64,000 nucleotides of DNA from an uncultured Gemmatimonadales bacterium (lineage in GTDB: Bacteria > Gemmatimonadota > Gemmatimonadetes > Gemmatimonadales > Gemmatimonadaceae), in contig OY969695.1 of assembly GCA_963701965.1 (NCBI GenBank), positions 1,760,001 through 1,824,000 of the forward strand, written 5' to 3'. The notes below the pieces were generated by a model. It was not told where the DNA came from and ran no database searches. It saw only the letters and a list, made by a program, of their open reading frames with translations. Each line of letters begins with the position of its first letter. Within the stretch, counting starts at the first letter, position 1. The position numbers and the translations under genes were made by a program. Positions 1,726 to 63,422 of the stretch are shown here, in pieces.

Positions 1726-2507
1726 GCATCTCCGATCAACGCCAGGACGCGGCAGGGACTGCCGGACCCGTTCACGATCTTGAGCGGCGGCGTGATCAGG
1801 ATCGCGCCCTTGGGCGGCAGCTGATCGAGATTGGTGAGGCTCGCCAGTCCGAACTTGTTGTTCCCATGCATGATGCTGTGGCAGGGGAACGGGGGGTCGA
1901 ACGTGAACGCCTGGCCGGCATCGGTCCCCACGCCTTCCGAGCCCCACCCGATCACGTTCCGTTCGCGGGCCAGGAAAGGCACGAGGTCGGGATGCGGACC
2001 GGGCACATGCGCGCCGTCCTCCTTCATATTGAGGAACGCCGACGGGTCGCGGCGCTTGGACCAGTCGGTGCGCATGAGAACCCAGCTCCCGGCTTCGACC
2101 CGGCCATGCGTTTTCTCCCACGTCTCGATATGGCCGGGCGTCAGGAGAAAATCGGAATCGGCCGCGGCCTCGCGCGACACATCGACGACGCACGCGGGCG
2201 CCAGGAACTGCTGCACCGGGATGCTGTCGGTCGCGTTGTGGGGGTAGTCCTTGCCGGTCACCCAATGGATCGGCGCATCGAAGTGCGTCCCGGTATGCTC
2301 GCCGCAGGAGAAGTTGTTCCAGTACCAGGCCGGCCCCCGGCTGTCGTACTTGGAAATTTCCTCCAGGCGGAATGGCCACGAGGGACCGAAGTCGGGCGGC
2401 AACTGAATGACGGCGGTCCGCGCATCCAATGGCTGGCTCAGATCGACCACCCGGACCGCGCCCGTGACGAGCGCCCGCGTGAGCCGACTGAGGAGATCAT
2501 CTGGCAT
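1722..2507 (-). CDS. Cyclase family metallo-amidohydrolase (isatin hydrolase/kynurenine formamidase-like)
   Basis: YWNNFSCGEHTGTHFDAP metal motif, DAGQA, GSGSPCR. Confidence 0.9.
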   Translation of the reverse strand: MPDDLLSRLTRALVTGAVRVVDLSQPLDARTAVIQLPPDFGPSWPFRLEEISKYDSRGPAWYWNNFSCGEHTGTHFDAPIHWVTGKDYPHNATDSIPVQQFLAPACVVDVSREAAADSDFLLTPGHIETWEKTHGRVEAGSWVLMRTDWSKRRDPSAFLNMKEDGAHVPGPHPDLVPFLARERNVIGWGSEGVGTDAGQAFTFDPPFPCHSIMHGNNKFGLASLTNLDQLPPKGAILITPPLKIVNGSGSPCRVLALIGDA

Positions 2508-2522
2508 GGAGCGTCCTCCTCT

Positions 2523-4265
2523 CTATTGAGTTCCGCGCAATCTACTCGCGGCAATGCGGCGCATTGCGTCCTCGTGGCGCCGGGGGTCGGTGAGATCGTA
2601 GGGCGACTCGTCCGGCGCGGCGTCAGATGAATCGAGCAGCATGGTCTCGAAATCGAGATCGCGTTGCACGCGCCGCAGGGCATCGTCGCCGATCGTCCCC
2701 CGGTCGCGCATCGTGATCACCGCTTCGCGCTCGGCGTCGATCATGTCGCAGCGCGCCCACCGGTAGGCATCGCTCCACGCGTGAGCCTCGGCTTCAGCGG
2801 CGCGATCTTCCTCGACGTCGGACCGGCGATTGTGCAACTGCCAGTGCTTCGCGCTCTTCTCGTACTGCGCCCGCAGCGCGGCGACGATCCCCGGGGGCAA
2901 GGCCTCGCGGGCCTCGAGATCGGCGAGCCGCACGAGCCCGGCTTCGGCGGCCGCCAATCGCGCCGAGTCCTCTTCCATGTTGTCCGGCTCCTCGCCCCGC
3001 AACCCCAGCCACCGGATCACGGGCGACAACGTCAACCCCTGCAGGACCAGCGTAGCGAAGATGACGCCGAAGGTGACGACCAGGATGAGATCGCGGGCCG
3101 GAAACGCGGCGCCCGATGCGGTCAGATACGGAAGCGCCAGCGCAATGATGAGCGAGTCGGCGCCGCGCAGGCCGGCCCATCCAATGAACGTGATGTGGCG
3201 GACTCCCCGCATGTAGGGCATCGCGTCGGTATCCTCGCGATGCTTGGAGCGGATGAACCGCCGCAGGAGCCGGGGCAAGTAGGCGCTGGGAAAGACGTAG
3301 AGCATCCGCACGCCGATCACCACCGCGCTCACCACCGCCGTGTACCACGCCAGCTGCTCGAACGAGTGCGTGCGCAATCCGGCGCGCACCACCGGCAGCT
3401 CGAATCCAATGAAGATGAACGTCAGGCTCTCCAGCACGAACACGAGCATCGACCACACCGCTTCCGACTGGATCCGCGTCGCCGCCGGTGTCGTGTTGAG
3501 GGTCGTGCGGCCCAGATAGAGTCCCACGGTGACTACGGCGAGGATGCCCAATGCGCCGAGGCGGTCGGCCGGGATGTAGGCGGCGAACGGCGTCAGGAGC
3601 GCGACGGCGTTCTCGACAATGGGGATCCGTCCGACGTAGCGCACGATCGCCGTGCGCAGGAAGGCGACACCCCGGCCCACGATCAGCCCGACCGCAATGC
3701 CGGTGATGGCGGCATACGAGAAGCGCCAGAAGACGTGTTCGGGGCGGAACGCTCCCGCGACGGCGGCGGCCACGGCGATCCGGTAGGCCACCAGCGCGGT
3801 CGCGTCATTGAGTAGCCCTTCGCCCTCCAGCACGCGGGTGATCGCGGACGATACGCCGAGCGGGCGCATCACCGCGATGGCGGCGACCGGGTCGGGCGCC
3901 GCGACAATGGCGCCCAGCGCGAACGCTGCCGGCCAGGTGAACTCTGGTGTCAGCTCGTGGGCGACGACCGCGACCGCGCCAATGGTCACCAGCACGAGCC
4001 CAACTGCCAGCCGCGCGATGGGTGCCCATTCGATCTGAAAATCCCGGAGGGAGCTCGTGATCGAGTCCCAATAGAGGAGCGGCGGGATGAACAGGACGAA
4101 GAGAACTTCCGGATTCAACTCGAGCTGCGGTACGCCCGGGACCAACGCCAGCAGCAGCCCACCAATGACCAGGAGCACCGGGTGCGGGACGCCGATCCGG
4201 CTCGCGACCGCGCGCAGCAACCCGGCGACCGCCAGCAGGATCAAGATCAGCTGGATCGCCGCCAT
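2523..4265 (-). CDS. CPA1 family Na+/H+ antiporter
   Basis: Multiple TM helices, FIPPLLY, PDPVA, LEGEGLLNDATAL, GLRG, cytoplasmic tail. Confidence 0.9.
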   Translation of the reverse strand: MAAIQLILILLAVAGLLRAVASRIGVPHPVLLVIGGLLLALVPGVPQLELNPEVLFVLFIPPLLYWDSITSSLRDFQIEWAPIARLAVGLVLVTIGAVAVVAHELTPEFTWPAAFALGAIVAAPDPVAAIAVMRPLGVSSAITRVLEGEGLLNDATALVAYRIAVAAAVAGAFRPEHVFWRFSYAAITGIAVGLIVGRGVAFLRTAIVRYVGRIPIVENAVALLTPFAAYIPADRLGALGILAVVTVGLYLGRTTLNTTPAATRIQSEAVWSMLVFVLESLTFIFIGFELPVVRAGLRTHSFEQLAWYTAVVSAVVIGVRMLYVFPSAYLPRLLRRFIRSKHREDTDAMPYMRGVRHITFIGWAGLRGADSLIIALALPYLTASGAAFPARDLILVVTFGVIFATLVLQGLTLSPVIRWLGLRGEEPDNMEEDSARLAAAEAGLVRLADLEAREALPPGIVAALRAQYEKSAKHWQLHNRRSDVEEDRAAEAEAHAWSDAYRWARCDMIDAEREAVITMRDRGTIGDDALRRVQRDLDFETMLLDSSDAAPDESPYDLTDPRRHEDAMRRIAASRLRGTQ

Positions 4266-30452: not shown

Positions 30453-30831
30453 GACGCCGGCCGAATCGATCGGCGCGATCACGCTCTCGTTGGCGCGCTC
30501 GAGTTGTTCGACCTCACAGCGGTAGATCCGCGTTGGCGTGACCATCGCCGACGGGAGATTTTGAGGGCGCGCGAGTGCTTTTGCGGCGTGCTCTTCGCGG
30601 AACACCCCGACCCGGTCGATGCGGTGTTCCTCCGGAAGTGCTTTCTGCAGTTCGCGACAGCCGCGCGCCACGCACGCTTGACCGGTAGGCAGAGTCGGCC
30701 CACATAGTCACGGACACACGAAGGCCGGGAAGGCGAGGAAATCCACCAGCGCGGCCTGGGCTAACTACCTGCGGGTTTTGAGGTTGTACGAACGCGCCCG
30801 GAGAGACTCGAACTCACAACCTTTTGATCCG
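30453..30831 (+). repeat. 379-bp direct repeat, copy 1 (partner of 62888-63266)
   Basis: Manual alignment, ~15 substitutions, no gaps (~96%); contains 3' part of gene 62780-63142 plus a tRNA fragment. Confidence 0.95.
30793..30831 (-). mobile_element. att-like 3' half of tRNA-Arg(ACG), copy 1
   Basis: Minus strand CGGATCAAAAGGTTGTGAGTTCGAGTCTCTCCGGGCGCG: T-arm plus acceptor 3' strand, no 5' half. Confidence 0.85.
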
Positions 30832-43619: not shown

Positions 43620-43821
43620 GCGATCCCGAGACACACTCTCGCGAACATCATGGTGCGATGCCGCCGCCGGTTACCCCATGCAATGTCAACATTTGTCGGG
43701 TGTAACGCGCACACGCAGCTCTACGACCTGCCACGAGTCGACTTTCCCCCTAGACTCCGCGGGCAATTCCTGTCTCGCTTGGCGGCACCTTGCAACAGCA
43801 ATTCGCGACGATCTCGGCATA

Positions 43822-43858
43822 TACCGCGAGATCGCGTCGTCCGCTGCCGCCCTTCCCT
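43822..43858 (+). repeat. 37-bp repeat shared with 63324-63360
   Basis: TACCGCGAGATCGCGTCGTCC(G/C)CTGCCG(CC/TA)CTTCCCT, 3 mismatches. Confidence 0.8.
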
Positions 43859-43949
43859 GGATGCTATACCGTTATTTTGCCGGGTCAGGTACGCGGCCAT
43901 CGCCGCCACCATGACGAGGAGCGTGCGCCGTAACGCGGTCTGGCCGGCG

Positions 43950-49469: not shown

Positions 49470-49794
49470 CCGCCATTCTCGTGATGCTGCTCGTTCTCGC
49501 CATGGGCGGTACAAGGCTCGCACTTGTGATGTCCACGATGTCAACGTGGCGCTCTAACGGCGCCAGTTCCGCCAGTGTAGGCGATCCCTTTGAACATGTC
49601 TGGGTGCTTCACCGGCGGAGATCGCGCGCCGCGGCAATGCGCTCCTGACTCGATGACCATCTACGCCCGCGAGTCGATGTTGGTCGGCGACACGGGCACG
49701 GTCGTGCCGCCGCGCCGGCAATGCGCAGGCCGACGGCGATTCCTGCCAACCCGCCAATGGCGAGAGGGTTCACCTCCGCGATCACCCCCGCGGC

Positions 49795-58370: not shown

Positions 58371-59654
58371 CTACGGCGCGATCTTCTGTGCGGCCTCCCG
58401 CTCCGAATGCTCGAACGCGTCGGCGAATTGGTCGAGTTCCTGGTCGGTCATGCCTATGTCGCGACCGACGTCGCGCCAGCGGGCCACGGCGGCATCCACG
58501 TCTGCGATTATCTCCCGTGCCCGCATTAGCGGAACCGCGAAGTACTCCGTCGCCGACAGGAGAGCAGCGATCGTCGCTTCTGGCCCGGTATCCTCGGTGA
58601 TCCAGGTCTTGAGTTCCCGCTCACGCTCCGGGAAGGGGTTTACGTCGAACGCTGGCGAGAGCCGCCACTTCCCAGCTTCCACATGCAGGAAGCCGTGATT
58701 GTGCAGGTGATCGTCGACGTTGTTGATCAGAATCGAGAACGCGATGCGACGAAATAACTCGTCAATGTCGACCTGCGTTGCAGCCCCGTGCTGCCTAAGC
58801 GCATCAACGATCTCGGCGTAGGAGTGGTCTTCAGCCGTGCCCCTGTCGACGCCGAGCAGCGTGGCCGCCGAGACGTACATCAAGCGCCCTCCACCCGGTC
58901 CTCGGTCGAACCGTCGAATGACGGCAACAGGTGTATCCTGACTCATCACCACCCTAGCTTCGGCTGCGTGTATTCCGGCGACCGCCGCTAAGCGGAGCGC
59001 GAGTACTTCAGCCTTCGTCACCGCACGTTCGTCTCTTACACTCGGAAACTTCCCAATTGAGAGCCGGCCCCCGCTGTCGACGATTGTGGCTTTCGGTCTG
59101 AGGCCACCGAGTGAGGTACCGCGGCCGCGCAGGTAGGCGAGATCAGCCGCCGTCTCGCTGTGCATCTCCACGGCACGGCTCGCGGCGATGAGGTGGTCAA
59201 GCTCGACCAGGGGCGGGGTCGTCCGTCGCCCTTCCTCGATCGCGCGGCGAAACACGCCATCTTCATCGCGGAATCGGAGGGCGCCAATGCGACTTGGATC
59301 ATCCACCGCGAGTAGGAAGTCGAGCCCGCCTTCCATCGACGGGAGTGCCTCACCCGCTTGCCGGGCTGCGGCGCGGCGCTTCGCCTGGTCCCGACGAATT
59401 ACGGTCTGACCCCAGCCGTCGGGTTCAGTGTCAGCGAGAGCTGGATGAAACACCGAGCCCTCTTTCGGTTTCTGATGGAACTGTAATCCCGGTTGGAGCG
59501 GAAGCGTCGGATCTATCGCGAAGCGGTCCTCAGCGCTCAGCCACGACGGATCGTACTCGAACATCGCGCTCTCGCGCTCTCCTTGCTTGTTATAGTGGAG
59601 GAGGCCAACGCGTCGCGGTGTCTCGCCGATATGCACCTGGATTGAGCGCTTCAT
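58371..59654 (-). CDS. hipA: HipA family kinase toxin
   Basis: GTSLGGLRPKA, KFP, DDHLHNHGFL, LSPAFD; HipA N-terminal subdomain present. Confidence 0.92.
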   Translation of the reverse strand: MKRSIQVHIGETPRRVGLLHYNKQGERESAMFEYDPSWLSAEDRFAIDPTLPLQPGLQFHQKPKEGSVFHPALADTEPDGWGQTVIRRDQAKRRAAARQAGEALPSMEGGLDFLLAVDDPSRIGALRFRDEDGVFRRAIEEGRRTTPPLVELDHLIAASRAVEMHSETAADLAYLRGRGTSLGGLRPKATIVDSGGRLSIGKFPSVRDERAVTKAEVLALRLAAVAGIHAAEARVVMSQDTPVAVIRRFDRGPGGGRLMYVSAATLLGVDRGTAEDHSYAEIVDALRQHGAATQVDIDELFRRIAFSILINNVDDHLHNHGFLHVEAGKWRLSPAFDVNPFPERERELKTWITEDTGPEATIAALLSATEYFAVPLMRAREIIADVDAAVARWRDVGRDIGMTDQELDQFADAFEHSEREAAQKIAP

Positions 59655-59983
59655 AGTTCGGTTGGCTCAGTCTTGGTGCGCACGCGCTCAGGGAGACGCT
59701 CGACGTCTAGCACCAGGGCCTGGTCATCGCGGCTGGCATCGACGAGATCGCCGAACGGAGTACCGAGGCCGAGGACGAACAGTGCCATGGCGTAGACGCC
59801 CATCCCAACGGTCGGGTCGCCCCGCTCGACGCGGAAATAGGTGGGCTTCGACACGCTGAGGCGCCCGGCCATCATGGTCGCAGTGAGGCGACGTTTTCGT
59901 CGGGCAACGCTAATGTCCCGCCCCAGCTTGATCAGGGAGCGGCGAACCTGGGGAGGCAGACGATCAAAAAGAGGAGATTTCAT
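59651..59983 (-). CDS. XRE/HipB-like antitoxin
   Basis: ARRKRRL....MA.RL.VS..T..RVERGDP HTH; ATGA overlap with hipA. Confidence 0.88.
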   Translation of the reverse strand: MKSPLFDRLPPQVRRSLIKLGRDISVARRKRRLTATMMAGRLSVSKPTYFRVERGDPTVGMGVYAMALFVLGLGTPFGDLVDASRDDQALVLDVERLPERVRTKTEPTEL

Positions 59984-59992
59984 TATTACGGC

Positions 59993-60033
59993 CACATATA
60001 TGTTATCCTAACCAGATTTATAGTCACATATAT
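59993..60033. promoter_or_regulatory. Candidate antitoxin operator
   Basis: CACATATAT twice (59993, 60025); palindrome ACATATATGT at 59994-60003 in an AT-rich patch. Confidence 0.45.
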
Positions 60034-61744: not shown

Positions 61745-62211
61745 GTGAAGTACCCCGGCCGACGCGTGAGCAGCTGTCTCGGCACCCGGCAAACCCGACG
61801 TCGACTTCGAGCTCGACCACATTCGTTGGCCCGCCGAGGTCGACAAGAAACGCAAGACCTGGGTCTCGCCGCTTCCAACGGCGCTCAAGCCGGTGCTCCC
61901 CGATTACCACGACCAGTTTGTCGACGATGATTCACCCTACTACTTCCCACACCCAGCCGACCCCTCACGACCCCTCGATAAGGATCGTGCGGATGGACTC
62001 CTCGAGAAGGCATACGAACTGGCCAAGGTCGAGCGAGCGAAAGGCGGGCTGTGGCACCCATTCCGCCGACGCTGGGCGACGCTGCGGAAGAAGCTACCCC
62101 TGTCGGACGTCGCACAGGCGGGGGGGGTGGGATGATGTTCGTACATTGCTGACATGCTACCAACTCGCGGATCCCGAGACACTCCGTCACGTCGCTGATT
62201 ACGACGGCTAG
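61745..62211 (+). pseudogene. Tyrosine recombinase/integrase catalytic-domain remnant
   Basis: GRRVSS, DVDF..IRWPAE.DK..W..PL, LWHPFRRRWAT (H-x-x-R), AGGW, LLTCYQ; N-terminus missing; frameshifts near 61793 and in the G-run near 62120-62128. Confidence 0.85.
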
Positions 62212-62320
62212 GTCAGTGGATCGCGAGGGTAACTCACACAAAAGGCCGCGACGATGAGAACTCCACCGTTCGCGGCCCGCTAACTGCTTGTCAGTTCTAC
62301 AACTACGTATCAGTCGAAAA

Positions 62321-62362
62321 CGCGCCCGGAGAGACTCGAACTCCCAACCTTTTGATCCGTAG
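62321..62362 (-). mobile_element. att-like 3' half of tRNA-Arg(ACG), copy 2
   Basis: Minus strand CT-ACG-GA TCAAA AGGTT GGGAG TTCGAGT CTCTC CGGGCGC G: anticodon loop to discriminator, no D-arm or 5' acceptor strand. Confidence 0.9.
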
Positions 62363-62423
62363 GCAGAATCCACCGACATCGCGATTCCCTCTACTACGAT
62401 CGTCGCTATCTTAGTCGATCGCC

Positions 62424-62780
62424 ATGCCACCCAACGACGTGCGGATATTGCTCGAGCCAGTGTCCCGATCCGAGCTTGCGGACATGGCGGCGCAGGGATT
62501 CGGCGACATGATCAAGGCGGTGGTGGATGTGAGCCAAGCTATCATGGCCGTGGGCGGCGACCTCCATTCCGACGAGGAGGCGGCGCTGCTGGATGCCGGA
62601 TCGCGCCAGAGTGACATCTGGGGAATCAACCTCTATCCGTCGGAACAGACGGACGATTGGATCGAGTTCGACTCCATGATCAACGTGCGACCGGCACAAG
62701 GGAATCGATCACGCTCCGTTGACAATGTCGCATTGCGGACCGAGATCGTACGCATTGTGCGCACGCTCGTCATCGATTGA
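62424..62780 (+). CDS. DUF5674-like protein
   Basis: FGDMIKAVVD...MA..G.LH.DEE..LL..GS.Q.D.WG.N.YP...IEFDSMIN.RP.QGNRSR.V. Confidence 0.8.
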   Translation: MPPNDVRILLEPVSRSELADMAAQGFGDMIKAVVDVSQAIMAVGGDLHSDEEAALLDAGSRQSDIWGINLYPSEQTDDWIEFDSMINVRPAQGNRSRSVDNVALRTEIVRIVRTLVID

Positions 62781-63142
62781 TGTCGCCACTGCACGCATTG
62801 CTCGCCGGGGGCCGCTGGGCAGAATTGTCCCTCATCGAGCAGCTCGCCAACGTCGGCAGCGAGGTCGAACGCACGTTACTGGCGCATGACGCCGGCCGAA
62901 TCGATCGGCGCGATCACGCTCTCGCTCGCGCGCTCGAGTTGTTCGACCTCACAGCGGTAGATCCGCGTTGGCGTGGCCATCGCCGTCGGGAGATTTTGAG
63001 GGCGCGCGAGTGCTTTTGCGGCGTACTCTTCGCCGAACGCCCCGACCCGGTCAATGCGGTGTTCCTCCGGAAGTACTTTCTGCAGTTCGCGACAGCCGCG
63101 CGCCACGCACGCTTGACCGGTATGCAGAGTCGGCCCACATAG
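62780..63142 (+). CDS. Helical hypothetical protein, partner of DUF5674
   Basis: GRW..LSL.EQLANVGSEVER, RALEL.DLT..D, EI.RARE, KYF..FA; start overlaps upstream stop. Confidence 0.8.
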   Translation: MSPLHALLAGGRWAELSLIEQLANVGSEVERTLLAHDAGRIDRRDHALARALELFDLTAVDPRWRGHRRREILRARECFCGVLFAERPDPVNAVFLRKYFLQFATAARHARLTGMQSRPT

Positions 63143-63266
63143 TCACAGACACACGAAGGCCGCGAAGGTGAGGAAATCCACCAGCGCGGCCTGGGCTAAC
63201 TACCTGCGGGTTTTGAGGTTGTACGAAGGCGCCCGGAGAGACTCGAACTCCCAACCTTTTGATCCG
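62888..63266 (+). repeat. 379-bp direct repeat, copy 2
   Basis: ~96% identical to 30453-30831 by manual alignment. Confidence 0.95.
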
Positions 63267-63269
63267 CAG
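63228..63269 (-). mobile_element. att-like 3' half of tRNA-Arg, copy 3
   Basis: GCGCCCGGAGAGACTCGAACTCCCAACCTTTTGATCCG identical to the copy 2 core; anticodon-loop base differs. Confidence 0.88.
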
Positions 63270-63422
63270 GCAAGCTCCACCGAGGCTGCGTTTCACTCGA
63301 CGACCACCCGTAAGTACCGACATTACCGCGAGATCGCGTCGTCCCCTGCCGTACTTCCCTCGCGGAGATGACGAGCTTCACCGGCTGTAAGACGCACAGA
63401 TACCGAGCGACGTTCGCCCGTC

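Follow-up and report, generated by a model that had tools for sequence, protein, structure and literature searches.

A 0.9-kb integrase-less unit carrying a DUF5674 gene pair in a tRNA-Arg(ACG) array of a Gemmatimonadales genome: a probable CIME-like relic

Introduction

The window analyzed here is a 64-kb stretch (positions 1760001–1824000) of the single-contig 5.12-Mb genome of an uncultured Gemmatimonadales bacterium, hereafter G000. Near its right-hand end, two partial copies of a tRNA-Arg gene enclose only two coupled genes, which raises the question of whether so small a block is a complete element moved by an integrase encoded elsewhere or what is left of a larger one. We argue that the unit is probably a decayed CIME-like relic within a tRNA-Arg(ACG) array, in which internal deletion spared a P' arm, the DUF5674 gene pair and just 35 bp of the P arm.

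The unit and its ends

Alignment confirms the arrangement described in an earlier note on this DNA, namely two tRNA-Arg 3' copies lying 907 bp apart around two coupled genes: direct repeats of 79 nt (62319–62397 and 63226–63304), whose starts are separated by 907 bp, are 84% identical and share an identical run of 38 bases (62322–62359), and a 38-nt probe gave three matches in the 64-kb window versus none in 100 shuffles. Both copies correspond to the 3' part (nt ~30–76) of the genome's tRNA-Arg(ACG), with 96–98% identity, and begin at its anticodon loop. The similarity beyond the tRNA part, which had also been pointed out, is real and extends in addition over ~90 bp on the opposite side, a stretch previously missed. 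The description of the unit as att-bounded and integrase-free holds as well, since it encloses two ORFs only and no match to the family Int or Xis was found within 62365–63226. The GC content is 0.615, versus 0.671 for the genome.

The names P and P', and the view of arm repeats as integrase arm sites, follow the analogy to lambda-type systems. With these names, the features of the unit and of its right-hand border are:

62319..62365 (−): att core on the left, repeating the 3' part of tRNA-Arg(ACG), attR side of the unit; 97.9% identical to tRNA-Arg over 47 nt
62363..62397 (+): P arm of the unit, cut short; matches positions 1–35 of 137 in an nhmmer profile made from 15 further P arms
62395..62423 (+): DUF5674 module leader; a −10-like hexamer (TATCTT) stands 11 nt ahead of the ATG; the arm is probably fused on at 62395–62397
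62424..62780 (+): DUF5674 gene, 118 aa; PF18924, E 1.4e-34
62780..63142 (+): partner gene (120 aa, helical bundle by prediction); TGATG overlap with the DUF5674 gene
63137..63223 (+): P' arm of the unit, including a single arm-type repeat; GGCCGC hairpin at 63157–63192 (z −4.5); profile positions 24–116 of 118, E 1.6e-21
63226..63273 (−): right att core, junction to the next unit on the tRNA side; 93.8–95.6% identical to tRNA-Arg
63271..63403 (+): full-length P arm of the tRNA-side neighbor unit; profile positions 2–134, E 1.7e-27

A sigma-70 promoter and terminator scan of the unit detected no full promoter and no terminator.

An array behind tRNA-Arg(ACG)

The intact tRNA-Arg(ACG) gene (genome c1834740–1834815) lies outside the window, 11.4 kb from the unit. 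Partial copies are found at genome positions 1826560 (degenerate), 1823226, 1822319 and 1790791; three att copies fall in the window and two outside it and, together with the intact tRNA gene, all lie within 44 kb. These copies split the region into units of ~8.1, 3.3, 0.9 and 31.5 kb with unrelated cargo, which in the three larger units consists of:

~8.1-kb unit: AAA_14-DUF4143 ATPase, protease, EamA, M1 peptidase
3.3-kb unit: arginase, FAD oxidase, CGNR
31.5-kb left neighbor: mixed block with HipA

Several remains of related elements are found in the left neighbor or at its far end:

61770..62211 (+): frameshifted C-terminal tyrosine-integrase stub belonging to the left neighbor; 75% (aa 267–385) and 67% (aa 373–411) identical to an intact 412-aa integrase of the related genome G001
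62227..62301 (+): P' arm of the left neighboring unit; profile positions 33–110, E 2.6e-11
43661..43885 (+): two orphan distal P-arm pieces, coreless, inside the 31.5-kb unit; E 3.3e-06 and 1.7e-09
30453..30831 (+): second copy, decayed, of the partner gene end (3' part) together with P' arm and att core (core 30791–30831); 379 bp at 96.0% identity
30284..30330 (+): perhaps a relic of a distal P arm, beside the second copy; weak match (profile positions 87–133, E 0.04–0.8)

The integrase stub (61770–62205), which the earlier note had missed together with the third att copy at 30791–30831 and the two outside the window, stops ~20 bp from the arm of the left junction. In the second copy, seven non-synonymous changes stand against three synonymous ones in the coding part, so that the partner gene there is a pseudogene; the presence of the gene end and P' arm twice in one array (96% identity) implies that they were copied or integrated twice. 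The weak distal P-arm relic next to this copy would fit a larger ancestor. Note that the orphan P-arm pieces at 43661–43885 stand in swapped order, a sign of a further buried junction, and that ARAGORN calls a 70-nt tRNA-Val(GAC), perhaps spuriously, inside the island (window 49504–49573).

Mis-joining of repeats during assembly could in principle produce such an array, and the joins of the related draft genome G005 are indeed inconsistent at these repeats between two assemblies. However, G000 is one 5.12-Mb contig, all copies differ by substitutions, and the succession of gene, arm and core recurs in independent soil contigs; an artefact is hardly credible.

Arms, integrase and relatives of the family

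The junction sequence occurs at least twice in four of the five other genomes of the genus and also in 16 metagenome stretches, some of which duplicate the genus genomes; a viral sequence scan for the junction gave no match. Alignments show that family arms flank the core on both sides, with a P' arm of ~100 bp and a P arm of ~135 bp. In the P' arm, short direct repeats are accompanied by a GGCCGC hairpin (z −3.6 to −4.5), and the end of the P arm is a copy of the P'-arm repeat. The idea that the extended similarity marks the ends of related elements is borne out by this conservation of arms on both core sides across the genus relatives.

A relative with an intact recombination module occupies the same tRNA gene in G001: the 65-kb element at G001:C9:99648–164951 (L018–L021), inserted at tRNA-Arg(ACG), has an intact xis-like gene and a 412-aa integrase, and also encodes TrbC, VirB3, TrbE and T2SSE. 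Its recombinase matches the phrog_1 integrase and is preceded by the Xis-like gene. The arms of the 0.9-kb unit are homologous to those of this xis-int/trb element, which likely represents the parent type of the unit's family.

Elsewhere in the family the integrase is mostly decayed. Of seven copies of the cognate integrase in the regions examined (with G005 entered once), six are C-terminal stubs beside the P' arm, one of them (L037) near a contig end, and this is the gradient expected from internal decay. In the complete G000 genome, no intact integrase more than 50% identical to the family catalytic domain was found; the other G000 integrases are at most 50% identical in this domain and are located elsewhere. 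No helper for mobilization in trans was thus identified in G000. Units with near-complete arms at both ends and no integrase exist nevertheless in G003 (2.7 kb), G002 (2.0 kb) and G005 (1.55 and 3.3 kb), among them:

G003:C10:51217–53909 (L015): 2.7-kb integrase-less full-arm unit in the tRNA-proximal (youngest) slot
G002:C135:14806–16767 (L022): 2.0-kb integrase-less full-arm unit in the tRNA-proximal (youngest) slot
G005:C307:10369–11921 (L017): 1.55-kb integrase-less unit with near-complete arms

The units of G003, G002 and G005 may be live miniature elements, and the 2.7-, 2.0- and 1.55-kb ones are better candidates for trans-mobilization than the 0.9-kb unit, the weakest among them.

A truncated P arm and its fusion point

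The P arm of the unit covers 35 of 137 profile positions (~135 bp elsewhere) and lacks the distal conserved repeat, whereas the 15 other junction P arms reach ~135 bp, up to that repeat. A second short P arm is present in G000, at the junction at genome position 1826595, which keeps ~30–37 bp. Contigs from two soil runs, X1 and X2, which contain relatives of the window's strain, bear on the place of the truncation: (i) a 285-bp X1 contig reproduces the left junction, with 7 differences over 153 bases, and continues into a full P arm; (ii) an X2 contig matches 62395–62868 at 92% (36 differences), its upstream 812 bases being unrelated; (iii) another X2 contig displays the partner end, P' arm, core and P arm in that order. 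Taken together, these contigs place the fusion of the arm stub with the module leader likely at 62395–62397, the X2 contigs being possibly from different organisms. A joint in X1 that skips 912 positions was considered as an empty site and rejected: the first 30 arm bases fit the unit's own arm and not that of the right neighbor, and the joint is therefore a relative's full-arm junction.

A stranded remnant or a live miniature

In the scenario that we regard as probable, elements of the family would integrate at the tRNA anticodon loop, pushing older ones outward, and internal deletions would then strip them of integrase and cargo. A deletion at ~62395 would have joined the P-arm stub to a self-contained DUF5674 module, which, having its own −10-like box, would remain expressed. 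By analogy with lambda-type integrases, the distal arm repeat would be needed for excision; with this repeat gone, excision of the unit alone would be poor, and any movement would have to occur in cis together with its neighbors or through recombination between repeats. A TA-like action of the gene pair would explain why it survives in shrinking units.

The earlier note had proposed an intact minimal unit moved in trans. This finds no support in a P arm of 35 out of ~135 bp and a complete genome in which no intact cognate integrase was found; because the arm is cut short at 35 bp, the unit is likely a stranded remnant and not a working mini-cassette. The same note had named, as an outcome that would refute it, that the unit be the deletion remnant of an integrase-bearing island, and the likely 65-kb parent and the integrase stubs in relatives come near to just that.

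The alternative nonetheless deserves attention: the unit could be a live miniature element, excised as a 907-bp circle by an arriving family Int/Xis and reinserted at an att site, so that the region would be an integron-like array based on tRNA att sites. Three observations speak for it and at the same time against a mere remnant: the sister integrase-less units of 1.6–3.3 kb with near-complete arms, two of which hold the youngest slot; the second occurrence of the partner end, P' arm (96%) and core at the att 31.5 kb away; and the second P arm of ~30–37 bp in G000, of similar length to that of the unit, which makes a short functional arm type possible. A DUF5674 unit between ettA repeats, described below, points the same way. 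On the other hand, of the ~135 bp of a P arm only 35 are kept, the break falling where module homology starts, no cognate integrase was found in the genome, and the same unit was not found in the 80 GTDB loci, the 35 loci from relatives and the phylum, and the 16 metagenome junction loci. Neither a 907-bp circle nor a true empty site was present among the contigs of X1 and X2, which sample relatives only. We consider a live element unlikely. As for the TA step of the relic scenario, it has against it that PADLOC gave no match, that no DNA-binding domain was detected, and that a single viral locus was found.

The DUF5674 pair in other genomes

The DUF5674 protein is a full-length match to PF18924 (model positions 2–108 of 109) at 118.8 bits, above the curated cut-off of 27, and the partner, which has no Pfam match, has 1175 homologues. 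The two genes are tightly associated: the partner comes directly after DUF5674 in every one of the 80 best loci out of 538 in GTDB and in 34 of 35 loci from relatives and a phylum sample, two sets that partly overlap. DUF5674 is present in 47 of 301 genomes of the phylum, the neighbors of the pair are varied, and a viral scan returned one locus only. No paper naming DUF5674 or PF18924 was found in a literature search of main texts. The TATCTT hexamer of the unit leader also occurs in the L043 and L044 leaders, and a TAnnnT hexamer stands shortly before the ATG in many of 31 leaders inspected by eye, so that the module looks self-contained.

The tRNA-Arg att is found in none of the 80 GTDB loci, and no tRNA fragments bracket the pair within 1.5 kb in the 35 loci from relatives and the phylum. 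Other repeats do so in places: 5'-half repeats of tRNA-Thr in two of the 80 loci (L066 and L070, units of 1.6–1.7 kb) and 3'-end repeats of ettA, identified through its G000 homologue, in two loci (L074 and L110). The ettA-flanked unit (1.06–1.08 kb) is 83.6% identical over 1213 bp, end to end, in two genomes; L110 is labeled Chloroflexota, perhaps through faulty binning. More generally, in 11 of 66 loci (14 others were left out for short flanks) the pair lies between direct repeats of at least 30 bp no more than 1.5 kb away, a 15-fold excess over the 1.1% of control windows from 62 loci, these controls being windows and not TA pairs. The repeats are of mixed kinds, including gene ends and intergenic repeats. 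The other refuting outcome named in the earlier note, that homologous pairs are never att-flanked, does not apply either: most are unflanked, but some occur in repeat-bracketed units (tRNA-Thr, ettA). The pair was also considered as its own recombinase and rejected: the bracketing repeats are mixed in kind, and retroviral-integrase rows in VIA (Z 2.2–2.5) are at background.

In a quick tree with 79 rows (the window, G003 and 77 of the 80 loci, three loci being dropped for stops or a short partner), the window's pair falls with two non-att pairs (G003C15 and L043, SH-aLRT 100) and outside both the tRNA-Thr and the ettA groups, which suggests separate captures. The closest homologous pairs occupy a non-att site near a MoxR-type/DUF58-like operon (gene names read from sequence). 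This location, like the mixed short direct repeats around 11 of 66 pairs, would suit another explanation, in which the two repeats would not delimit an element built around the pair and the pair was inserted or recombined at a hotspot, illegitimately or with the help of homology, onto the P arm of an existing junction, the second copy arising by host repeat recombination. But a relative in X2 has the partner beside the P' arm and core, and the second copy in G000 keeps the same gene–arm join; hence the gene and its arm move as one element end. We judge this insertion improbable and keep to the decayed relic as the preferred reading.

Other arrangements were seen around the pair. In L074 (5731–6935) and L110 (20–4592), arrays of 1–2 kb units are split by three and four copies of the ettA 3' end and share a junction; no match to the family integrase was found in these two loci. 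Units are stacked upstream of tRNA-Thr(CGT) in L066 (5767–7571), L070 (1848–7494), L099 (2109–5344) and L006, each marked by a copy of the tRNA 5' half and promoter, with the DUF5674 pair as recurring cargo. In Nitrospirota (L097:5737–6865, L114:5562–7794, L088:5802–6766), the pair lies behind duplicated 3' ends belonging to a 2'-5' RNA ligase-like or M50 peptidase gene. Finally, L023 (G003:C15) has two copies of the partner gene (7–330 and 2402–3084) that are 88% identical and 2.75 kb apart, with no tRNA att.

Possible functions of the pair

The model of the DUF5674 protein is an alpha/beta fold (pLDDT 83.6). Its family has many invariant charged residues (the invariant positions being D, K, E, N and R), which suggests an active site and an enzyme-like protein. 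Foldseek found no match for it in PDB or BFVD. A search of G000 with PF05005, the phosphohistidine phosphatase family, gave no match. The best VIA match is weak and is to the phosphohistidine phosphatase 2nmm (Z 4.1, rmsd 3.3, 79 aligned); residues K31, H48 and S84 of the DUF5674 protein come in the same order as Lys21, His53 and Ser94, the phosphatase residues named in the pertinent passage of PMC4817053, a likeness of order only and not of a residue alignment. We treat this model-based resemblance as a lead only. The partner is modeled as a helical bundle (pLDDT 91.6) with no Foldseek match at E ≤ 0.001, and its best VIA match, to FliS (Z 9.4, rmsd 3.0, 99 aligned, 6% identity), is ordinary for a helical bundle.

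Searches with the sequences of the pair were no more telling: PDB sequence profiles gave nothing below E 0.1, ESM Atlas matches were solely to the proteins' own families, and PADLOC, NCBIfam and PHROG returned no match of note; neither a Pfam TA domain nor a DNA-binding domain was detected. Among 152 flanking ORFs, a TA-type Pfam domain (Polbeta, PemK, ParD, RES, Gp49, HEPN, MqsA-like HTH or PIN) lies adjacent in eight loci, a count without a control set; Uma2 and DUF2442 also occur among the flanking ORFs. One database protein (P0315) has the partner domain fused to DUF3024 (PADLOC candidate PDC-S43), possibly a read-through artefact.

The pair has TA-like traits, being small, coupled (80/80), patchy (47/301) and position-independent. 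A small TA-like module, made of a DUF5674 enzyme and a helical partner as its inhibitor, is a tentative reading on the doubtful side of even, and roughly as probable is a small accessory enzyme acting with a helper. The wider proposal, that integrase-less 0.9–3.3 kb tRNA-Arg units are shuffled by passing xis-int conjugative elements and that the DUF5674 pair, with its captures at tRNA-Arg, tRNA-Thr and ettA, is an undescribed TA or defense system whose enzyme has an unassigned fold, appears quite unlikely. The window has a HipA-family kinase with an upstream HTH gene (58371–59995), within the 31.5-kb neighbor unit. Its closeness had been offered as a hint to the function of the pair, but it lies 2.8 kb off, past the left att, and belonging to another unit it says little in this respect.

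Comparison with known systems

The pair is widespread, strictly coupled and repeatedly the last cargo of shrinking elements, and its repeated survival in that position makes it a fair candidate for toxicity and phage screens. What may be new here are the sister units of 1.6–3.3 kb, which have near-complete arms and no integrase. The genus provides a test set for whether integrase-less att-bounded units are dead relics or trans-moved cassettes: an intact Int/Xis in G001, full-arm units in G003 (2.7 kb) and G002 (2.0 kb), and the truncated-arm unit as a natural negative control.

The integron gene cassette is characterized by attC and IntI. The unit resembles it in being small, integrase-less and part of an array, with a self-contained two-gene cargo, but its boundaries are tRNA cores with arms and not attC hairpins, the cognate recombinase is a phage-type integrase with Xis, and there is no attI. 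The likeness to an integron cassette drawn in the earlier note is thus apt for the behavior of a cargo cassette in an array and fails for the boundaries and the recombinase. Compared with an IME or ICE, the unit has no integrase, relaxase or transfer genes of its own.

The definition of CIMEs and the three-step accretion model are given in PMC5704250, and against the passages that present them the architecture of the unit, judged from sequence, fits an already known type of element, so that the architecture alone is no surprise. As in those passages, the unit is att-bounded, has no int, xis or transfer genes, stands in tandem with decayed relatives at a tRNA 3' end, and has an intact integrase-bearing relative using the same site. 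Unlike the elements described there, it measures only 0.9 kb, is hosted by a Gemmatimonadota bacterium and has one truncated arm: both cores and the P' arm are kept, with 35 of ~135 bp of the P arm, and the unit is maybe past the stage of functional att sites. No active neighbor for mobilization in cis was found in G000.

Tandem units parted by RNA-gene-end repeats, many without integrase, are also known from the ssrA islands of Dehalococcoides, 15 of which lack an integration module according to the relevant part of PMC3146451; those rely on a serine recombinase and a 20-bp repeat, whereas here the enzyme is a tyrosine integrase, the core measures 46 bp and the arms are long. Cassettes behind tRNA genes, with partial tRNA repeats and integrase fragments, are likewise reported in the corresponding sections on the additive flexible islands of Alteromonas (PMC4898812) and the tycheposon-fed islands of Prochlorococcus (bioRxiv 10.1101/2020.12.28.424599). 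Tycheposons, as portrayed in the latter, encode their own integrase; the likely parent here has conjugation genes; and, relative to what these sections report for both kinds of island, conserved arms can be made out to the left and right of every core in the present family.
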